From: Escherichia coli
GTDB taxonomy: Bacteria > Pseudomonadota > Gammaproteobacteria > Enterobacterales > Enterobacteriaceae
Direction: 5' to 3' (one strand)
Length of the DNA: 64,000 nt
Assembly: GCF_044324875.1 (NCBI RefSeq)
Contig: NZ_CP172185.1
The notes under the pieces are model-generated. The model was not told the origin of the DNA and did no database searches. It was given only the letters and a program-made list of their open reading frames with translations. The position numbers were made by a program, and so were the translations under genes. Within the stretch, counting starts at the first letter, position 1. Each line of letters starts with the position of its first letter. Shown in pieces: positions 11,920-59,890 of this stretch.

Positions 11920-12405
11920 TCAGTCGATGATGCGCATAATGGCGCTGCATTCCGGATGCTGCAGGGCGTAATCCCGCAGCCGGTAATAATGGACCGTCAT
12001 GGCATAACACTCCGTACGACAGGCGTGATGACTGTACGTCATCAGACAGGCAGCAATGCCGGCGGCTTCCGGGCTCATTTCAGCGCGGTTACCGTTCATG
12101 GCATTGAACAGTACCCATGTTTCGCCATCATCGTCATCCGGTTCGGGCGCTATAAATGCGCCACCGTTGTTCAGTGTGTACAGATTCCAGATACCACCGC
12201 AGTAGTCTTCGCAAAGACGGTCCATCCAGCCGAAGATACGGGGCTCCAGGGTCACCCACTGTGGAATGAGGCAAAAATGCTGCGGCCAGAAGCTGATGCG
12301 CTGTTCATCAGGGACTATGGTGGCAACCAGCTGAGGCTGGTCATTCCCTGATGCAGCGGTTACGGAAACAGAAGATGTGGTGGAATTATGTGAAATGGTT
12401 TTCAT
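11920..12405 (-). CDS. antirestriction protein (ArdB/KlcA-like, YfjX family)
   Basis: 161 aa; position and acidic patch (EPDDDDGETW) as in island antirestriction proteins. Confidence 0.7.
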   Translation of the reverse strand: MKTISHNSTTSSVSVTAASGNDQPQLVATIVPDEQRISFWPQHFCLIPQWVTLEPRIFGWMDRLCEDYCGGIWNLYTLNNGGAFIAPEPDDDDGETWVLFNAMNGNRAEMSPEAAGIAACLMTYSHHACRTECYAMTVHYYRLRDYALQHPECSAIMRIID

Positions 12406-12459
12406 GAAATGACTCCTTAAAGGACAAATAAATGCGTGGTTTTCAGGGTAATGGCTGAA

Positions 12460-13278
12460 TCAGCGCAGGCTCTCCAGCAGCGTTTCCGCCATCACCCACA
12501 ATGCGCGGTTGAGCTTAATGTCAGTGTCAATGCTGTGAATGGCACGGGTATGGATACGTTTTCCTTTAGCGCTGCGACCTGAAATTCCGCCTTTCAGCAT
12601 ATTCTCCTGAATGGTCTGATAAGCACTCCACAGGTCCTTACCGTAATCCTCCCGGCGTCGTGGCGTCAGAATGTCGGCGGTGGTGACGGGCTGATGTTCG
12701 TCACCATAACGGTAAGTCAGTGCCGCCTGTGCCAGCGCCTGGCGTGCCGGTGGCGGCAGGACCAGCGACTGCATGGCATCACGCTTCTCCTCTATCCGGT
12801 CAAACACGCCCACCACCTCGTAAGCCCCTTCAATGACTCTGTCCACCACATTTCCCCGGTGCGGAACACGCACTTCCCCCCGAGACTGACCGCAGACGCA
12901 TCCGTTCTGGCAGACGAACCTGAAGTAACCCGGCAGCATCTGGTAGCTGGAGGTACCGTCATGAGAGTTGAGCAGAATAATTTCAGGGACATGTTCTCCG
13001 TTTATCTCTCCGGCCCGCCGCAGACGCAGCATGTGTTTTGTGTATCCCCGGCGGCCCGGGTCGCGCACACGGGTCTGGCAGGCGAAGAATGGCTGAAAGC
13101 CTTCCCGCTGCAGGCTTTCCAGTACGGTGATGGTGGGGATGTACGTATAGTTCTGGCTTCGGGACGTGTGTTTATCTTCCCCGAAAATCCCCGGCACATA
13201 GTGCATCAGTTCTTCGTGTGTCAGCGGACGGTCACGGCGTATCTGGTTCGCATAACCAAAACGACTGGCTAGTCGCAT
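12460..13278 (-). CDS. DUF932 protein (YfjQ/YafZ family)
   Basis: 272 aa; conserved position upstream of the antirestriction gene in CP4-type islands. Confidence 0.7.
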   Translation of the reverse strand: MRLASRFGYANQIRRDRPLTHEELMHYVPGIFGEDKHTSRSQNYTYIPTITVLESLQREGFQPFFACQTRVRDPGRRGYTKHMLRLRRAGEINGEHVPEIILLNSHDGTSSYQMLPGYFRFVCQNGCVCGQSRGEVRVPHRGNVVDRVIEGAYEVVGVFDRIEEKRDAMQSLVLPPPARQALAQAALTYRYGDEHQPVTTADILTPRRREDYGKDLWSAYQTIQENMLKGGISGRSAKGKRIHTRAIHSIDTDIKLNRALWVMAETLLESLR

Positions 13279-13377
13279 AATTTGCTCCTTATCGGTGGTT
13301 AAGATTTACTGGTGTAATAAATGAAAAAGCCACGTCTCCCGGAGAAGACGCGGCCTGATGGGTGAAATGAATGACGT

Positions 13378-13611
13378 TTATTGTCTGAGAAGACCGTCAC
13401 TGGCGAGCCGCGTATTAAGCACCTTTCCGGCATCGGGTTCAGAATTCCGGCAGCGCCAGCGTCGCTGACCTTCCGCGTTGCGGATAACCCGACGGAAATG
13501 CATTCCCGGGTCATCCTGGATAAACACATTGCGGTAAGCTGTTATGACAGCAACCGCCTGCCCGTATGAGAAAGATCCTTCAGCCAGGACATACTCTGTG
13601 TAACCCGGCAT
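13378..13611 (-). CDS. DUF905-like small protein (YkfF/YpjJ family)
   Basis: motif ...[45 protein letters not shown] resembles remembered YkfF; an overlapping alternative-frame ORF (13299-13529) was not called. Confidence 0.45.
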
Positions 13612-13689
13612 ATCTGTTTTCTCCTGATAAATAAAAAGCCTCTGCCACGCGTTGTGACAGAGGCTGAAGCATGAAACTGACTTCAGGGA

Positions 13690-14145
13690 TCAGTTAACGT
13701 TTTTTCCGGAAACGGTAATCAGCAGTGGATGGTAGTCCTGGGGATTGAAAACCGATAACGGCAGACTGACACGATGGCCGTTACTTTCTTCAGTTGCTTT
13801 AATGATTTCGGTTGTGGCGACATTTTCCACGCACTCCGTTTCCAGAAATGCGTCTGTGGTTCGCGTGGCATTACTGTCACCAAAAGCTTCCGTTTCCATT
13901 TTTCTGGTCACCAGCGTCTGACCATATTTGTCTTTGAGTTGCAGAGTGATGGTGAGGGGGCCAAATCCTTCATCGTTTCCGCCATTATCCAGCCGGAACT
14001 GGTAAGCACAAATATTTCCCGGGAGCCATATCGTATCTGTATTGCGTATACTGATGTAACGTTGATCCTGTGCCCGGAGTGGGGCAGACCACGTTAACCC
14101 CAGAATGAAGGCGGTAATCATGCAGGTTTTGAACAGGTGAATCAT
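13690..14145 (-). CDS. secreted/lipoprotein, YfjS/YafY-like
   Basis: 151 aa with N-terminal signal peptide (MIHLFKTCMITAFILGLTWSAPLRA). Confidence 0.6.
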   Translation of the reverse strand: MIHLFKTCMITAFILGLTWSAPLRAQDQRYISIRNTDTIWLPGNICAYQFRLDNGGNDEGFGPLTITLQLKDKYGQTLVTRKMETEAFGDSNATRTTDAFLETECVENVATTEIIKATEESNGHRVSLPLSVFNPQDYHPLLITVSGKNVN

Positions 14146-14220
14146 GGTATTTACCTCTCTGAGTCATGACGATGACACTGACAAATCAGGTGATAAAGCG
14201 TAAAAGGCGCAGAATAGCCG

Positions 14221-16743
14221 TTATGCCGGTAACTCCGGGGGTAATGCTTCTTCCAGTCGGTTAACCATATTGCCGAGATGGGATGCATCATATTCCATGA
14301 CGGGGCGTTGCCTGATGATACTGACCACCAGTGGTTTGATTAACATATTGGTCGCGGCCCGTTGTTGTATACCGGCGGCGAAAATGATCTCCAGAGCATT
14401 CTGATCGATAACACGGGCCAGATTCTCGTTCAGATTTTCAATCTCATGTCCGGTCAGCAGGAAACTGCCGGCAAGCCATGTCACCTGCTCCTGAATCATT
14501 GCCAGAATTTTGACGCGATCTTCTTCAACCAGCGCTCCGGCAATTTTTCCTGATACAGCGGAGGCAATCATTCCCCCCAGAACACCGCCAACCACACGCC
14601 CTGTCAGTGCACCAAATGGTCCCAGTGGACTGAACAGTATTCCGCCCGCCACTGACCCGACAGCACCACCTGCCACACCGGAAGATGCCACGGCAAGATT
14701 CCTGATGAACTGCGTACCGGAGATCCGTCCCCGCAACATTTTGATCATGTCAGGGCCGGTTGTGACAGCTACCAGTGCCAGAGATGTCACCAGCGTACCC
14801 TTCATCACTTTGTTCAGGGCACTGATATTTCCTGCACCGGTCCCCTTCTGAAGAGCCAGTCGGACAGTCGGGCTGGCAGTCGAAAAATCAATGTGCTTCA
14901 GCATACCCTGAACAACACTGAGCCGGTGGAGTTGCTGGGTTGTGACGTAGACAGCCAGTGTGCGGGTGAAGGTTTTTCCTGCCTGGACAGCAGCTGTCTG
15001 CAGGGCAGCATCGCGATCGCCGGTGCTGAGCCAGAAGACCGATGCCGTCAGGGCAAAACTGATCCCTCCGGCCGCCAGACTGACAACCGAACCCTCGGCA
15101 ATATCATAAGTGACCGATTCGATGGTCCCGAACCGGGTGATATTACGGGCCTGAGTATAAGTCAGATGTCCCCGACGAATCAGCCGGGATGCTTCTGCGG
15201 GATCGGTTACACCGGGTACTTTACCTTCGCGGATCTTATTCCTCATGGTTTCAACAGCGCCGGCATACTGATCACGGGGGACTTCCAGTTGCATGGGGCC
15301 ATTATTTCCCATGTAACGATACTGTCCGTTTTGTCCGTCGAATGCCGCACCGACGCTACGGGCTGCAGTTGAACAATATTTCGTCTGGATTTCTGTTCCG
15401 CTGACCAGTCTGTCTGCTCCATTTCTGGCATTATTATCACCGAGGATCCGTGCGTTTTTCAGACGGACTCTGTCGACAATATGGTTTCCCCGTTCAGCGG
15501 CAAACCCATGTCCCTGCCCTCCGGAAGCAAACATTTTCTCATTTGTACTCCAGGTTTCCGGCAGTTTCATGAGAATCAGACCATTCGCCGTTGCATCGGA
15601 AATAAAGCTGTTGTAAGGGCGTTCATAAATTTCCTGACACAGTGTTTCTGTTTCGCGACAAAGAGAGGAGCAGTACCATTCCGGATCCGGCTTATGATTT
15701 TCCGGGGCATGATGTACTTCTGTCAGCCCGCAGGAGGCACAGATACGAAGCTCATCCACGTGATGGAATGATACAAAACGGCGACCTTCTGAAAAGGGAT
15801 ACCAGTCACCGCCGTCCAGGCAACGATCGAGAAAATCGTCATTCGCTTCCGGTGATAAATTCAGGCGGTTCCGGAAGAGCGTTTTCAGTTCATCAGGTGT
15901 GAATGACAGGTTCTCTTTCAACTGTTCGTTAAACCCTGCCATGTTTCTTTCATACCAGGCATTGTTCAGTAACCAGTTTCCGTCTGCCAGTTCAAATTCC
16001 CTCAGCTCTCCCCGGGAAATCCGTTGAGAAATGAGCGTCAGCCAGATGCGCTCCGTCAGTGAGTCAGGAAGGCTGTAATCGTTTTGCAAACTGGTCAGCC
16101 ACGATTTACTGTTGAGCACCGGTTGTTCTTCCAGTGTCTGGCTGATGGCACAGGTCAGTTTTTTCAGCGCCTGGATTTGGCTGGCCGCCCATAGCAGCGT
16201 CACTAATGCAGCCAGCCAGTACAACAACCCGCCCCACCACATCAGTGACGGTGAAATATCGTACTGTAACGCGATCAATGGTGCGCATGCAGAACACGCC
16301 ATAAGGAAAAAGGCAGTATAAAAACAGCAGTAATACCCGTTAATTTCCTTGCTGATATCTTCTGGTGTGATCCCGTTCTGCTGAATGTTTTTGATCTGCA
16401 GGGGAACAGCCAGCAGACCACCGGCGAGAGCGGTGGTCAGAATAAATTTCACAGAGTCAAAGGTGTGAGCCTCCAGCGCGATATGTTTACCATCAAGTCC
16501 CCACATGAAGCTGATGATCATTCCGGCAATCGTCAGAAATACGCCTGCCAGCCAGCGAATATGGAACAACCGGGTTATGCGTTCGGTGATATAGCCAGCC
16601 AGTAAGGCCGGGCCGAACAGACACAGCAATATGAGCCCTGCCAGCGCAGAAGCCGTGCTGATTAATGCTCTGAACAAAAGGCGAAGAATGGCAAATCCTG
16701 CGATCAGCAGGATCAGCGCGCCGACTATCTGTAACATAGTCAC
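14221..16743 (-). CDS. large inner-membrane protein, YeeR-like (downstream of Ag43)
   Basis: 840 aa; N-terminal TM helices, Cys cluster (CASCG...CSSLC), C-terminal Gly-zipper-rich hydrophobic region; occupies the yeeR position. Confidence 0.7.
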   Translation of the reverse strand: MTMLQIVGALILLIAGFAILRLLFRALISTASALAGLILLCLFGPALLAGYITERITRLFHIRWLAGVFLTIAGMIISFMWGLDGKHIALEAHTFDSVKFILTTALAGGLLAVPLQIKNIQQNGITPEDISKEINGYYCCFYTAFFLMACSACAPLIALQYDISPSLMWWGGLLYWLAALVTLLWAASQIQALKKLTCAISQTLEEQPVLNSKSWLTSLQNDYSLPDSLTERIWLTLISQRISRGELREFELADGNWLLNNAWYERNMAGFNEQLKENLSFTPDELKTLFRNRLNLSPEANDDFLDRCLDGGDWYPFSEGRRFVSFHHVDELRICASCGLTEVHHAPENHKPDPEWYCSSLCRETETLCQEIYERPYNSFISDATANGLILMKLPETWSTNEKMFASGGQGHGFAAERGNHIVDRVRLKNARILGDNNARNGADRLVSGTEIQTKYCSTAARSVGAAFDGQNGQYRYMGNNGPMQLEVPRDQYAGAVETMRNKIREGKVPGVTDPAEASRLIRRGHLTYTQARNITRFGTIESVTYDIAEGSVVSLAAGGISFALTASVFWLSTGDRDAALQTAAVQAGKTFTRTLAVYVTTQQLHRLSVVQGMLKHIDFSTASPTVRLALQKGTGAGNISALNKVMKGTLVTSLALVAVTTGPDMIKMLRGRISGTQFIRNLAVASSGVAGGAVGSVAGGILFSPLGPFGALTGRVVGGVLGGMIASAVSGKIAGALVEEDRVKILAMIQEQVTWLAGSFLLTGHEIENLNENLARVIDQNALEIIFAAGIQQRAATNMLIKPLVVSIIRQRPVMEYDASHLGNMVNRLEEALPPELPA

Positions 16744-16857
16744 TCCGTGATGAATATCATGTTATTGTTAATGCCAGCGAATGTGGCGTTGAATATCCGT
16801 TGCGCCGGTCCGGGTCCCGATCATGATGACCGGGACCACAGAGAGGCGATGGTTCTG

Positions 16858-20239
<3,382 letters not shown>

Positions 20240-20394
20240 CCACTACAAAACAGCATGGTCAGATAAAGTGGTTTTTCCCGGACATAAATGTTTCCCCTCT
20301 CTCATCCGCCAGAGAAGCATCAGTCCGTTGTGTGCAATTCCGTTCTGCATGATGAAGAGATTCAGCTGCCTTTTCGCAGACCATTAACCACTAT

Positions 20395-20440
20395 AAACGA
20401 TCGATAGTAACGATCGATACCTGTTTTATCGATCGTTTTA
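20395..20440 (-). promoter_or_regulatory. agn43-type phase-variation switch: three GATC (Dam) sites within the OxyR binding region
   Basis: AACGATCGATAGTAACGATCGATACCTGTTTTATCGATCGTTTT with GATC at 20399, 20412 and 20431; lies between the YeeP-like gene and the flu remnant. Confidence 0.6.
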
Positions 20441-20553
20441 TTCTATTAACGGCAGGGAAGTCACGCAAGAGAAAGAGGTGGGTATGAGGGGGGGGGGGTC
20501 ATGTTTTCAGTTGGTTAACGCAATGTAATCAGGCATTTCCCCTGGCAGAGTGT

Positions 20554-21423
20554 TCAGAAGAAAATCCAGTTCCATACAGCGCGGGCAACAGAGACCACCG
20601 AGTCACGGACGGCACGCAGAACCGTGCGTGCAACAGAGGCAATACAGACGCTCTCCGCCGTGTCAAATATCCGGTCCACCGCACCGGTAAACTGTTCACG
20701 GGCCTGAGACCGGACAGATTCCGTGCGCAGCTCGTCCTGCAGGCGGGTCATCAGGGGACTGGCGGCATGGTCGGGAAGCGCTGTCATGAGCGCACTGACC
20801 AGCGTATCCAGTTCCCAGCCGGTGCGGGCCGATACGGCCACAACCGGATGTACGGGCCGGAACAGACGGAATACCGCCTCCGTTTTTTCGCGAATATTCT
20901 GTGCCTGTGCGGGAGAAGGCTGAATACCGGCCATATCCCATTCATGGCAGGGCTCCGTTTTGTCGGCCTGCGTCACCACAAACAGCACCTGCTGATGTCC
21001 CCGGTGCAGGATGTGTCGCCAGAAATACTCATCCACAGACAGGGCGCGGTCATCGGCTTTAATCAGCCACAGCACCAGGTCCAGTTCGGGCAGAATGTCA
21101 CGGTACAGGGCTTCATACTCTGCATCCCTGTCCCGGCTCTCGCCCACCCCGGGCAGGTCAGTGATAACCATGCTGTGACCGTGGCCACTCAGACGGAAGC
21201 GCCGCACTTCCCGGGTGCCGGCGTGAACATCACTGACCGGGGTGACCTCCCCCTGAAACAGTGCATTACAGAGTGAGGATTTACCGGCCCCGCTTTTACC
21301 CATAATGCCAATCACGGGTTCGTGACTGGTGAGTTTGCGCAGATGTTCCAGGATGTGACGGGAAAGTGAGTAAGGCAGGGAGGAGAGCGGTTTTTCAATT
21401 GCCTCAATGGCATCAGACGGATT
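20554..21423 (-). CDS. YeeP/YfjP/YkfA-family GTPase (50S ribosome-binding GTPase fold)
   Basis: P-loop GIMGKSGAGKSS, G3 DLPG; start placed at the internal ATG (MNPSDAIEA). Confidence 0.8.
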   Translation of the reverse strand, partial: NPSDAIEAIEKPLSSLPYSLSRHILEHLRKLTSHEPVIGIMGKSGAGKSSLCNALFQGEVTPVSDVHAGTREVRRFRLSGHGHSMVITDLPGVGESRDRDAEYEALYRDILPELDLVLWLIKADDRALSVDEYFWRHILHRGHQQVLFVVTQADKTEPCHEWDMAGIQPSPAQAQNIREKTEAVFRLFRPVHPVVAVSARTGWELDTLVSALMTALPDHAASPLMTRLQDELRTESVRSQAREQFTGAVDRIFDTAESVCIASVARTVLRAVRDSVVSVARAVWNWIFF

Positions 21424-22656
21424 CATACATGTATTCCCGGTGAAAAAAGACAAAACCCCGCGCACCGGAAAGGTGGCGGGGGATTCACGGAGATAATATC
21501 TGTCTGAAATTGTTTTGAATCGATGGGATTGTTGCGTATTAACATGAAGGAGATCAGGACTTATCCGTTACTGGGTGATCTCCTTCCATGAAAATACGCC
21601 GTTATTGTTAAACAGCAGGCTGATTTCTCCGTAAAGGGGAAAATATTTATCGGCTGTATGATTATCAGGTGTGTCTGTGTTTACTGCTGTGAGTATTTTT
21701 TAGTGTATTGTGGGGGAGATGTCAGTGGGAGATATTAAATTTACGTTTATAATTATCTTACTTCTTCTGTGTGTTTTTTATAAGAGTGCACACGTAATGA
21801 TATCTGTTGATACCATGTGGTTAAGTGTTTCCCTTCCTGGTCATGCGTAATGATTAAATGCTTTTGTGACACCATTCTTCCGGTCTGAATATTTATCCCG
21901 TTCTTTTTTATTTGTGCAGTGATACTGTCGGAAGAGAATTCAGTAATGTGAGGTGTCCTGGTCAGGATAATATCTGCTGAGATATTATTAGTTGAGGGTG
22001 TTTTTACTGAGCAAAAGCTGGCTTTTAATTCCTGTACTGAAACACTGTCGCTCGTCCGGGGTTAACTGAAACTGGATGATGATGTAAAATGAAGGCTGTT
22101 TTTGTGTTTGTCGAAGAAGTGTTATTTTAATCCATTCTCATCATTGGCTGGCGATTATACAGAAGTATTTGAAGAAAAAATGGTGCATTTTATCTGTGTC
22201 AGCAGGGAAGAAGTATTTTATTGATGTATCAGTATTAAATGGTTTTTGTTATTTATAAAAATGTCATCCTGTCCATAGAATATTGTACTCAGCATTCAGT
22301 GCAGGAACTGTAGTCTTCTTTATTTTATTCTTCTTCAGGAGGGGGGTGATTCCTGAAGGCGTTATTCCCGGTGTTCTGTTTATGATTCTTCCCGGCAGGA
22401 AACCGGTATCTGCAATACCCGGGATGATGCTTTTTGTTCGTACGTGGTTGTGTAAAATTTGAATAGTGGATGTGCTCCGAAGGGAAGGAGGGGACACACA
22501 GATTCATTTTGTCTTTCTTCAGCAGCAAAATACACTGTGGTTATTATTTAACCATTAAATCAACAAAAATTTTTACCTCATATTGATTTGACTGCTATTT
22601 TTGCTATTAATAGCCAGAATTGCAGTGCTTTTATATCTGTGTATAGTGAGGTTACT

Positions 22657-24141
22657 ATGTCATTCGGTCAGCCTTGTGATGAGTTTCCCCTGAGTTCGCT
22701 GCCTCCACTCATTCGTGATGCCGTTATTGAAGCTCAGCAAATTACGCAGGCTCCCCTTGGGCTTGTGGCAGCGTCTGCCCTGGGCGCTGTTTCACTTGTC
22801 TGCCAGAATCTGATTGATGTCTGCAGACTGAATACACTGCGGGGGCCGGTCTCTCTTTTTTTCCTGACGCTTGCCGAGTCCGGAGAACGAAAAACCGCAG
22901 TGGACAAATTATTAATGAAGCCCCTGTACCAGCAGGAGATGCAGTTATATTCCAGATACAAAAGTGAACTGGCTGTCTGGAAAAACAAGGAAGAGCTTTT
23001 AAAGGCTCAGAAAAAAGCATTGTTGTCAAAACTGAATAAAGAACTCCGCAAAGGCGCGGATGAGTCAGAAACCCTCAGACAACTGGAAGTACTTCAGAAA
23101 AACAGTGCGGAAGAACCTGTGAGGTATAAATTCATTTTTAATGATGCCACGACTGCGGCAATTAAGAATCAGCTTTGTGGTAAATGGCGTTCAGTTGGTA
23201 TTATGTCAGATGAAGCCGGTATTATATTTGATGGATATACCCTGTCTGAGTTGCCTTTTATTAACAAAATGTGGGATGGCTCTGTATTGTCTGTGGACAG
23301 AAAGAATGAACCCGAACAGATGATTGAAAATGCCAGAATGACGTTATCCCTCATGGTGCAACCCGGTCTTTTTGACCGATATATGGAGCGAAAAGGTTCT
23401 GTTGCCAGGGACAGTGGTTTTCTTGCCCGTTGTCTTATCAGTAAACCTGCAACCACGCAGGGGAAACGCTTTATTAACGGAGCTGTGATTCCGGGAGGAT
23501 CATTAACGGCATTTCATGAACGATTAATGGAACTGGCCAGAGGCAGTATTGAAAAATCCAGTGAGGATGAACGGTATTGTCTGCATTTTTCGCCTGAAGC
23601 GCAAAAAATATTTATTGAGCACTATAATGTTCTGGAGCAGGATTTATCCCCTTCCGGACCCTTAAGCCCGTTTCGGGGACATGTTTCAAAAAAAACAGAA
23701 AACATTGCAAGAATTGCAGCGTTATTTCAGTATTTCAGCTATGGTGAAGGGAAAATCTCTGCCGATATCATGACGTCTGCTGTCGTAATAAGTTCGTGGT
23801 ACACAGATGAATATAAAAAATTATTTGCGTTACCTGATGAATCTGAACTGCAGCAGAAGGACGCCGAGGAGCTGTTCGACTGGCTCATTGAGGAGTGCCG
23901 CGGAGAATGCCCGCCCCGTGTCAGGAAAAATTATATTCTCCAGTGTGGCCCGGGCCGGTTCAGAAACAGGAAAAAACTGAACGCATTGCTGAACATTCTT
24001 GAATCTCAGTTCAGGCTTTCTGTCGTGCCGGAAGGAAAAACCATGTATGTTCTGCTTCCCCAGATAGCCAGTTTAAAGTTGTCTGATGTCTCTGGTATTT
24101 TTACCTCGGGTTATCACTACAATAAGCTGAGAGCGAAGTAA
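22657..24141 (+). CDS. DUF3987-like protein (YfjI family, primase-associated C-terminal domain type)
   Basis: 494 aa from the ATG with GTGAGG RBS; typical P4-like island gene. Confidence 0.65.
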   Translation: MSFGQPCDEFPLSSLPPLIRDAVIEAQQITQAPLGLVAASALGAVSLVCQNLIDVCRLNTLRGPVSLFFLTLAESGERKTAVDKLLMKPLYQQEMQLYSRYKSELAVWKNKEELLKAQKKALLSKLNKELRKGADESETLRQLEVLQKNSAEEPVRYKFIFNDATTAAIKNQLCGKWRSVGIMSDEAGIIFDGYTLSELPFINKMWDGSVLSVDRKNEPEQMIENARMTLSLMVQPGLFDRYMERKGSVARDSGFLARCLISKPATTQGKRFINGAVIPGGSLTAFHERLMELARGSIEKSSEDERYCLHFSPEAQKIFIEHYNVLEQDLSPSGPLSPFRGHVSKKTENIARIAALFQYFSYGEGKISADIMTSAVVISSWYTDEYKKLFALPDESELQQKDAEELFDWLIEECRGECPPRVRKNYILQCGPGRFRNRKKLNALLNILESQFRLSVVPEGKTMYVLLPQIASLKLSDVSGIFTSGYHYNKLRAK

Positions 24142-24462
24142 CCGGTGAGCAGTTTTTCTCCATTATGCTTCAGACTTAGATGATTGATTATTATGGGGAT
24201 TTCATCACCGATATTCAGATGTATGAATATCGGTGATGAACTAAAGCTCAGGAGCTGCGTGGTGGTGATGAATCAACAGGCATATAACTGATACCCGCCG
24301 GTCAGAAGTTCCAGCCTGCGACTTTCCTGTCTGCGTGCCCGCAGTCCGGCGTTCAGGTGCAGCGTGTGACAGAACGCACGGAGAGCGAAACGGCAGGCAG
24401 ACAGGCCGTTCAGTCAGCCCTGGCACCCTGCCCGGATACCAGCTTCCCTGAAACAACTGGCA

Positions 24463-25071
24463 TCAGGTGCGCTTATCGTCAACCGTTGTGCGGTATGCCA
24501 GGAGCACGTACTGATCCATCAGATCCGTCAGTGCTGCGCTCTGCTTCTGACGGTTGATGATCCATTCCTCCAGCTCTTTTTCTGATTTCCGTTTCAGATT
24601 CTCCGTCCAGTCGTCAAGGCAGTTTCCGGTCATTAAATCAAGCCAGCAAAGCCAGACCAGTTTGAGGCGCAACTCCGTGCCACCAAACTGACGGAAGAGG
24701 CTGATCAGTTTATTTGCCAGCGAACGCTGCCTCAGACGTTCACATTCAGACAGGAGAATGCCTTCCAGCATCGGATGATGAACCAGCAGATGTTCACTGG
24801 TGCATAAATTCACTATCAGATCATCATCCAGGGGCGGCGTGGTCCGTTTGTCCGGACCATAAATCAGCCGGTGCAGACTCTGGGGTACGATGGCAATCTC
24901 CGGTTTTTCACCATTGAATGACACCCACCCGGGCGTCAGATTATGGAAGTAGTAGATATTCGGATGACACACGCCCCAGGATACGGCGTGCCGGGTGAAG
25001 CCGGTCAGCCATTTCTGGTAGCTTTCGTGGAGCAGCTCGTAACGGGTCTGATACTGTGGTTTCATTTTCAT
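24463..25071 (-). CDS. hypothetical protein downstream of the alpA-like gene
   Basis: 202 aa from the ATG with GAGG RBS; same strand as alpA. Confidence 0.5.
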   Translation of the reverse strand: MKMKPQYQTRYELLHESYQKWLTGFTRHAVSWGVCHPNIYYFHNLTPGWVSFNGEKPEIAIVPQSLHRLIYGPDKRTTPPLDDDLIVNLCTSEHLLVHHPMLEGILLSECERLRQRSLANKLISLFRQFGGTELRLKLVWLCWLDLMTGNCLDDWTENLKRKSEKELEEWIINRQKQSAALTDLMDQYVLLAYRTTVDDKRT

Positions 25072-25151
25072 ATTCCTCACGGGGGATAACAGGCAGCAGA
25101 ACGCCGCCGGCAGGCCGGAGACTGCGTCTGCTGCAGATGAACGGTTAAGAA

Positions 25152-25358
25152 TTACGGACGGGACTGTGCAATACGCGCCTGCAGCCAGGCTTCCACTTCG
25201 CTTTTCAGCCATCGGGAGCTGCGGCCCATTTTGATGGGCGCAGGAAAGTCACCATCCTTGATGAGTTTGTAAAACCACTTATCGGTCAGGCCGGTCAGTT
25301 GAGTGATAAATGCCATGTCGACCATCTGGTCATCCATCAGTGAAACTGGGGTGATCAT
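25152..25358 (-). CDS. AlpA-family phage/island transcriptional regulator (excisionase-like HTH)
   Basis: 68 aa from the ATG with GGAGG RBS; ...MAFITQLTGLTDKWFYKLIKDGDFPAPIKMGRSSRWLKSEVEAWL is the AlpA fold signature. Confidence 0.7.
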   Translation of the reverse strand: MITPVSLMDDQMVDMAFITQLTGLTDKWFYKLIKDGDFPAPIKMGRSSRWLKSEVEAWLQARIAQSRP

Positions 25359-26015
25359 GAGAATGTTCCTCCGGATGTTGTTAAACCAGCCGGTGTGGTC
25401 ATGAAAACAACGCACCACCTTCACCGGCATAACAACCGGGGAGAAACGTAAAAAATAATCGGGAATGTGACCGCCAGGAGATAAACGGGGAGGTTACGGT
25501 GGCTGAGCCGTACCGGTATGCCGGGTGGTTGTTACGAAACGATGCTTCCGCACGCGTGCGCGATAAAGAAGGGATGATTTTCGTGAGGAAGAGGGGAAAA
25601 CTGGCGTTCTGATAATTGCAGAGTTATTTACGGGGCGGTTACGATGGGGCAGACCGTGTCCGGTGGGCAGGCGACAGGTATCACCGATGGGATAAGACTG
25701 TCTGATTGGTATTATAAATATATAAGAGAGATCAAACACATGAGATCAAATACATGAGTTCATATATGTGAAATAAACACGGTGAGTGTGATCAGTGGGC
25801 ATGATGAGAACGCTGCAAAATGGCATCTGAATCGATCGCAGTTTGGCATTCGAATCGATCATGATTTGGCATCCATCTCCGATCACAGTTTGGCATCACA
25901 ATCGATCACGATTTGGCATGCTTCCGATCATTGATTGGCATCCTGCCAGTCACTCCGGGAATTAACTCTTTTCACCACAGTCTCCATTGCCGTGTTTAAA
26001 CCAGTGGAGACGTCA

Positions 26016-59780: not shown

Positions 59781-59819
59781 TCAGAAGAGGTAAACTGGCG
59801 GAAGATCACAGGAGTCGAA
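59781..59819. repeat. island attachment-site repeat, selC-proximal copy (overlaps the 3' end of selC)
   Basis: direct repeat of 8348-8386. Confidence 0.7.
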
Positions 59820-59890
59820 CCTGCCCGGGACCGCTGGCGGCCCCAACTGGATTTGAAGTCCAGCCGCCTCACCGGAGACGACGATCTTCC
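59796..59890 (-). tRNA. selC: tRNA-Sec (selenocysteine, UCA anticodon)
   Basis: rc of 59796-59890 reads GGAAGATCGTCGTCTCCGGTGAGGCGGCTGGACTTCAAATCCAGTTGGGGCCGCCAGCGGTCCCGGGCAGGTTCGACTCCTGTGATCTTCCGCCA, the E. coli selC sequence (95 nt). Confidence 0.95.

Follow-up and report, generated by a model that had tools for sequence, protein, structure and literature searches.

An uninterrupted tract of 11 G residues is located at positions 20488-20498 (+ strand) of the window, the stretch of 64,000 nucleotides of Escherichia coli DNA analysed in this study, and reads as C11 on the strand that encodes the neighbouring GTPase and agn43 genes. We consider this tract to be probably a neutral, self-extending GnT mutation hotspot, further modified by replication slippage, in spacer DNA at approximately −54 to −64 of an orphaned agn43 promoter. 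We regard the site as one more case of mutational phenomena already described, rather than a novel device of regulation. Beyond the initial annotation, which had noticed the tract from the sequence, the analysis adds that the tract is derived and was generated by directional T-to-G changes, that it is located upstream of the core promoter, and that the adjacent agn43 gene is truncated by an insertion sequence (IS).

Position of the tract between the GTPase gene and the agn43 switch

The window represents a selC-associated genomic island with the tRNA-Sec gene (selC) at the island edge (59796-59890, − strand). A segment of the genome of BEN2908, an avian pathogenic strain (L001, NZ_LR740776.1), is nearly identical to it, and there the island is likewise associated with selC. 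On the − strand, the GTPase gene is followed by a 54-nt spacer, the tract, 19 nt, the hexamer TTGCGT, a 17-nt spacer, the hexamer TAGAAT, and three GATC sites. The elements at the site are as follows:

20399-20402, 20412-20415 and 20431-20434: the three GATC sites of the Dam/OxyR agn43 switch, read from the sequence and kept in K-12 and in all alleles
20440-20468, − strand: putative agn43 core promoter, with the −35 element TTGCGT (20463-20468), a 17-nt spacer and the −10 element TAGAAT (20440-20445), from the K-12 alignment
20486-20501, + strand: full GnT hotspot motif comprising GA, G11, T (20499) and CA; the motif definition and the effect of the GA...C flanks are from PMC12344412
20488-20498, + strand: G11 homopolymer, at about −54 to −64 from the putative agn43 start, by homology to the 5′-end of K-12 isrC
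20500-20553, − strand: 54-nt spacer from the GTPase stop to the tract, unusually conserved
20554-21426, − strand: YeeP-like GTPase family gene of 290 aa, with the start as annotated by PGAP in relatives (Pfam MMR_HSR1)

The initial annotation had described an 11-G run, C11 on the coding strand of its neighbours, between a YeeP-like GTPase gene and the GATC region of agn43, about 55 bp past the GTPase stop and about 50 bp from the GATC cluster. The sequence agrees with this description throughout: the run occupies exactly 20488-20498, the TGA stop codon at 20554-20556 leaves a gap of 55 bp, and the closest GATC site is 53 bp away. Such tracts had also been called uncommon, and G11 is indeed the only G or C run longer than six within the 64-kb window, the next longest runs being A8 and T8. 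For independent bases at the composition of the window, 0.011 G runs and 0.006 C runs (about 0.017 together) of at least 11 nt would be expected per 64 kb. The same 81-mer including G11 is present in 12 complete E. coli genomes, so the call is not peculiar to one assembly, and A+C11 was read directly in four further loci (FDAARGOS_1058, O103:H2 20151001, L065 and L068).

We infer the agn43 promoter from the K-12 alignment, because a consensus scan does not call this site (8 of 12 matches). Its coordinates are taken from the K-12 annotation, in which the 5′-end of isrC is located 6 nt after the same TAGAAT, and the agn43 start would correspondingly lie at about 20434. IsrC is the leader of agn43, and its antitermination controls flu (PMC5389530). 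The Dam/OxyR phase variation of agn43 was worked out in K-12, and the mechanism is summarised in PMC2909390. Scanning both strands of 20200-20800 for promoters and terminators yielded no promoter-like site, and the only "terminators" were the GATC palindromes; no intrinsic terminator was detected in the interval from the GTPase stop to the agn43 promoter. Likewise, an Rfam search returned nothing for the tract and the 54-nt spacer; RF01387 (isrC), the one match nearby, is inside the IS element described below. The GTPase open reading frame itself stays open up to 21465.

With these assignments, the tract is located 19 nt upstream of the putative −35 element, outside the −35/−10 spacer and outside any real coding region. 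It would thus lie upstream of the core promoter, at approximately −54 to −64, and outside the Dam/OxyR GATC switch. The next change to G is predicted at T20499, whose counterpart on the gene strand is the A in CATGA.

The spacer on the other side of the tract is conserved to an unusual degree, with a mean nucleotide diversity (pi) of 0.014 at spacer positions 1-40 and of 0 at positions 41-54, the latter (14 of the 54) falling inside the search pattern used to find the metagenome loci, as compared to 0.057 at third codon positions in the GTPase gene. The spacer is also near-invariant in six diverged genomes found by BLAST, and alleles that diverge strongly beyond the tract keep it. We further observed that the spacer (20500-20553, − strand) holds a 9-codon ORF (ATGCCTGATTACATTGCGTTAACCAACTGA) preceded by AGGGGAA.

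Truncation of agn43 by an insertion sequence

Comparison with the intact locus of FDAARGOS_1058, which is otherwise 99.9% identical to the window, revealed two further features downstream of the promoter:

16858-18989, − strand: agn43 remnant comprising the C-terminal approximately 710 codons, without start codon or promoter, from the ORF list and the FDAARGOS_1058 comparison
18990-20247, + strand: IS3-family insertion sequence of 1258 bp with the ends TGTAGTGG...CCACTACA, from the comparison with the intact FDAARGOS_1058 locus

The element, which PGAP labels "IS3 family transposase" in BEN2908, stands in place of 1050 bp, namely 62 nt of the leader and the first 329 agn43 codons. The IS junction is common to the window and BEN2908 only. 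Since the end of the leader and the first 329 codons have been replaced, the tract cannot affect Ag43 in the window. The Dam/OxyR switch and the promoter are intact and now point into the IS element, the switch having been orphaned by insertion and deletion.

The Rfam family RF01387, annotated as "isrC Hfq binding RNA" and based on Salmonella, matches 19058-19180 (+ strand) with 147 bits, within the left end of the IS element and the start of its orfA. This match is not E. coli IsrC, which is the agn43 leader, and the family may simply be an IS fragment.

Stepwise T-to-G changes in relatives

To follow the history of the site, it was read in 70 sequences: the window, 39 metagenome contigs, 20 loci from complete genomes, and 10 NCBI assemblies that encode an identical GTPase protein. 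The spacer region is present in 2,664 of 5,426 complete E. coli genomes, i.e., in about half of them. The alleles read on the + strand comprise GGTGTTTGT(G/A)T, GGGGGTTGTGT, GGGGGGTGTAT together with a form that is one shorter, GGGGGGGGTGT, G9-TAT, G9 to G13 followed by T, and pure G7 to G12 without T. The lengths read directly on the gene strand are A+C9, 10, 11, 12 and 13, and C7, 8, 9, 10, 11 and 12.

These alleles fall into an ordered series of G2, G5, G6 and G8, then G9-13 with T, and then G7-12 without T. Each of the 70 sequences consists of a G run and an intact 3′ suffix of the ancestral site, save for two unrelated point changes, and the 5′ boundary ATGA|G is fixed in all alleles. The interrupted form is found in all six of the most diverged alleles (O157:H7, HUSEC2011, A2, P31_YH1, TUM14664 and Ecol_656; 84-88% identity over the 111-bp query). 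Therefore this form is ancestral, which sets the direction of change. As judged from the aligned alleles, the series shows that an 11-nt + strand site, GGTGTTTGT(G/A)T, was turned stepwise into an uninterrupted G run through T-to-G changes. At the end of the series, the final T is lost (C7-C12 with no preceding A) in nine loci (L003, L004, L005, L020, L024, L058, L064, L066 and L070).

When the sequences were clustered on 1.2 kb of flanks, the long-run alleles formed one clade beside ACACAACCCCC and ACACCCCCCCC, and the haplotype clade around the window includes ACACAAC5, ACAC8, A+C9-11 and C10-11. By identity bands, only a minority of records are in the long-run state: 194 of the 2,586 records with a match to the 81-mer reach at least 95% identity, and the approximately 92% of matching genomes that are less than 95% identical to the long-tract query were taken as a proxy for the interrupted, stable form. 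A scan with the flanking pattern, using one genome per species, gave no match in other species. The GTDB representative of E. coli is, we believe, K-12, whose upstream sequence differs. The allele seems to be restricted to lineages of E. coli.

We also considered, and rejected, that a rearrangement had its breakpoint at the tract, as one BLAST match (H100) ended there: the real breakpoint is located after TCATAC, past an ordinary ACACAAACACC site. In this strain, PK-F-10132 (L073 1440-1570), a deletion joins TCATAC past the ACACAAACACC site to the C-terminal beta-barrel part of the autotransporter, which removes the agn43 promoter and most of the gene.

Proposed extension by a GnT hotspot and replication slippage

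At GnT hotspots, a T that immediately follows a G run on its 3′ side changes to G, at a rate that climbs with the length of the run (PMC12344412). A 5′ dinucleotide ending in A raises the rate, with GA being the strongest for G4. The combination of 5′ GA and 3′ C represents the most mutagenic G4 flanks examined experimentally, with an increase of about 1112-fold over baseline, or about 360-fold with A at +2. As the underlying mechanism, the authors propose that the strands slip and then realign, and they observed a stronger effect on the leading strand (PMC12344412); the GnT effect is cited for several bacterial species in PMC13250602.

The site in the window has the corresponding sequence, that is, a run of more than three G residues followed by T, 5′ GA and 3′ C, with A at +2, the fold values quoted above having been published for G4. 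Moreover, the T-to-G change at the predicted base recurs in relatives, as seen in the nine loci without the final T. With regard to the strand, tRNA-Sec is encoded on the − strand, and the GC skew of the window is +0.026. Together with the position and orientation of selC in K-12, these two features suggest that the + strand G run is on the leading strand.

The ancestral site became a pure G run in steps, with each T-to-G change affecting the base next to the 3′ end of the growing run, and we propose that these changes reflect the GnT hotspot in its GA-Gn-T-C context. Once the run had reached about 8-9 residues, replication slippage would have added length changes, giving rise to lengths of 7-13. 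In line with this proposal, alleles with a run of at most 8 all have a total site length of 11, except for the G5/G6 pair, and those with a run of at least 9 mostly have another length. The tract would have arisen recently, in non-essential spacer DNA, by a known mutational mechanism.

The site resembles the published GnT hotspots (Cherry 2023; Horton et al. 2025, PMC12344412) in the G run followed by T, the 5′ GA and 3′ C, the T-to-G change at that base, the stepwise self-extension, and a G run that is apparently on the leading strand. It differs in that the published cases comprise G3-G5, mostly in coding DNA of Pseudomonas and Salmonella, whereas the site described here is a natural E. coli series of alleles, not rates, which is located in intergenic DNA, spans G2 to G13 and has slippage on top. 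If the GnT reading is correct, the site provides a natural record of the birth of a long homopolymer, from a GT-rich 11-mer to G13 in the order predicted for GnT, with all intermediates kept in this one GTPase-agn43 spacer and instability appearing once the run is long. Models of mutation bias could also use it as a worked example. For comparative genomics the site carries a warning, as the length calls vary with the quality of the assembly.

We noticed a second G run in the window, G6-T-G-A at 22341-22347 (+ strand), in the loop of a hairpin at 22334-22359 (CTTCAGGA...TCCTGAAG). It is located between a YfjI-family gene and the GTPase gene, upstream of the latter. The alleles in relatives are G6TGA, G7TGA, G9A, G8A and G7A, the same pattern of T-to-G extension and slippage.

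Tract length and agn43 regulation

Because the tract is located outside the −35 and −10 elements and outside the Dam/OxyR GATC switch, its length would most likely have little or no effect on the expression of Ag43. Neither its position nor the comparison with relatives gave a positive sign of function, and a literature search retrieved no described homopolymer at agn43. That the tract would be without function is an argument from position and dispensability. If the hotspot reading is correct, the knowledge of Ag43 regulation remains unchanged.

Homopolymers in promoters that vary by slipped-strand mispairing include the poly-C of Bordetella fim and the poly-C/G/A tracts of Neisseria opc, porA and nspA. 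By analogy, the tract could act as a contingency element, with its length shifting the spacing and helical phase of the 54-nt segment, or of an alpha-CTD/UP contact, relative to the agn43 core promoter. This would amount to a genetic rheostat atop the epigenetic Dam/OxyR switch, like the Bordetella fim poly-C. The likeness to such simple-sequence contingency loci is that a long G:C homopolymer is located near the promoter of a surface adhesin and is polymorphic in length among isolates. The tract is only 19 nt upstream of the −35, the lengths of 7-13 correspond to half a helical turn, the neighbouring 54 nt are conserved below the synonymous level, and several genomes have long-tract alleles beside intact agn43 or cah genes. 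If a factor were bound to the conserved 54 nt, the tract length would alter its helical phase relative to the promoter.

However, several observations argue against such a function, which we regard as unlikely. In K-12, the model of agn43 phase variation in which the Dam/OxyR switch was defined, the sequence that precedes the −35 is unrelated and contains neither such a run nor the 54-nt segment. A third unrelated upstream sequence is found in L071, and therefore the DNA upstream of the −35 is interchangeable. In contrast to the known contingency loci, the tract is located upstream of the −35, neither in the −35/−10 spacer nor in an interval that separates the promoter from a known activator site; to our knowledge, no activator has been described for agn43. 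Moreover, most strains have an interrupted, stable form, as do about 92% of the matching genomes by the identity proxy given above. The length distribution is broad and unimodal and not clustered, and agn43 already has an epigenetic switch. The likeness to contingency loci is here drawn from sequence. As to the Dam/OxyR switch of agn43 (flu), the tract shares the locus with it, and the three GATC sites (at 20399, 20412 and 20431, kept in K-12), as expected for an OxyR site where the transcript begins, and the core promoter are intact, 53 bp away. The G tract is, however, outside the element and no part of the switch.

For strains with intact agn43 or cah, we likewise deem it rather improbable that slippage between C7 and C13 tunes the ON level or the switching bias via helical phase or Rho loading. 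If tract length did tune agn43, this would constitute a rare slipped-strand contingency element in E. coli atop a textbook epigenetic switch, and the GnT hotspot would be the route by which a contingency element arises anew in this species.

At least three unrelated sequences occur upstream of the agn43 −35 (window 20469-20553, K-12 in L002, and L071), and they join the conserved core near the CTTG of the −35. This arrangement suggests that recombination has recurred at the −35 junction.

C-rich RNA downstream of the GTPase gene

Against the neutral reading, both sub-lineages, ACAC... and ATAC..., moved toward C-richness, which could also be explained by selection, for instance for a C-rich Rho loading site. 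The C run would then strengthen a rut site after the GTPase stop, which would stop read-through short of the agn43 switch, and selection would have favoured the changes from A to C on the gene strand. The transcript has the composition of a rut site, which is approximately 70-80 nt of C-rich, G-poor, unstructured and untranslated RNA. The 98 nt of the gene strand from the GTPase stop to the −35 contain 37 C and 14 G, with a peak C/G ratio of 4.8 in a 60-nt window, and the RNA after the stop is less structured than shuffled sequences (fold z = +1.2). The lack of an intrinsic terminator between the stop and the promoter in the terminator scan would fit with this proposal, as would the C/A-rich and G-poor composition of every allele, the ancestral ACACAAACACC included. 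We nevertheless rate selection for Rho loading as quite unlikely. The resemblance to rut sites just past a stop codon is limited to composition, and the gain from a pure C run is doubtful given that the ancestral allele was already C-rich. In addition, the strict order of substitutions outward from the run is predicted by a mutational hotspot and not by selection for C content alone.

Length polymorphism and assembly errors

The initial annotation had further regarded the tract as prone to slippage, and the length is in fact not invariant: runs of 7-13 were read directly among isolates, including close ones, although part of the spread is technical. Four groups with identical 540-nt flanks contain 2-4 different alleles each, for example A+C9, C10, C11 and A+C11, and pi at the site is 0.227, as compared to 0.057 at third codon positions in the GTPase gene. 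Among the best 60 of the 194 complete genomes with at least 95% identity to the 81-mer, the matched length differed from that of the window by −2 to +2; seven of these 60 were verified by reading the sequence.

We asked whether the tract might be stable in cells and its length polymorphism an artefact of sequencing or assembly at a long homopolymer. The closest relative, BEN2908, which is the sole genome with the same IS junction, has C9 as compared to C11 in the window with zero differences in the flanks. However, over the 13.6 kb corresponding to 12224-25813 of the window, its assembly has 48 gap positions, mostly deletions of a single base in runs of A, T or G or at CCWGG (Dcm) sites, along with small clusters of substitutions. 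This pattern is the signature of long-read errors, and we therefore dropped the C9 of BEN2908 as a sign of rapid change. Because of the same signature, the "frameshifted" pseudogenes annotated by PGAP in this region of BEN2908 are probably artefacts. Two short-tract genomes also have agn43 annotated as "frameshifted", which speaks for an artefact of length.

In spite of this technical component, we find it improbable that the polymorphism as a whole is artefactual. The substitution alleles, with their interruptions and the loss of the flanking T/A, are not miscalls of length and form an ordered series. The over-long alleles A+C12, A+C13 and C12 exist, whereas the long-read errors in BEN2908 are all deletions. 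Furthermore, metagenome contigs, presumed to be derived from short reads, give C10, C11 and, twice independently, ATAC9, and G11 recurs in at least 12 independent complete genomes. Neither the substitution series nor these over-long and metagenome alleles can be explained as technical.

G-quadruplex motif and antisense reading frames

A regular-expression search for canonical G-quadruplex motifs (four runs of at least three G with loops of 1-7 nt) on either strand of the 64-kb window returned a single match, 20480-20498 on the + strand. Here, G11 and the GGG upstream of it (GGG-TATGA-GGG-G-GGG-G-GGG) could fold on the template strand and locally affect transcription or replication. We judge such an effect to be highly improbable, since the match is one of sequence and the motif is restricted to the small minority of alleles with at least 11 G, shows no conservation, and has to take two of its 1-nt loops from the run itself.

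The tract is also contained in a short reading frame on the + strand:

20484-20528, + strand: 14-codon ORF, with an ATG preceded by GAGGTG, which contains the tract (shadow ORF)

Only with a site of 8 or 11 nt does the frame starting with the ATG at 20484 extend to 263 aa antisense to the GTPase gene; with the 12 nt of the window it ends after 14 aa. Near the 5′-end of a 263-aa antisense gene, the tract would then constitute a translational frame switch, ON at 8 or 11 nt and OFF in the window. The start codon, the Shine-Dalgarno sequence GAGGTG and the 263-codon frame at the 11-nt site speak in favour of such a switch, as does the probability of about 2e-4 for an antisense run of this length under the average codon usage of the window. 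We consider this explanation extremely unlikely and rejected the 263-aa ORF as a gene, as the paralogues ykfA and yfjP carry 5-9 stops in the same frame. The variable sites are distributed 51:15:13 over the sense codon positions 3:1:2, so that the most variable position is the first position of the antisense codons. Therefore the antisense frame is under no protein constraint, and the frame conservation and purifying selection in relatives that mark a coding gene are not observed. Premature stops are present in 4 of 31 alleles, antisense open runs of 238-358 codons occur at other GC3-rich genes in the window, no + strand promoter was called, and the start region is absent from K-12.

Finally, the last 240 codons of the GTPase gene contain no TTA, CTA or TCA, which leaves an antisense open frame of 241 codons (20554-21276, + strand). 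This frame is a shadow of codon usage and not a conserved gene.
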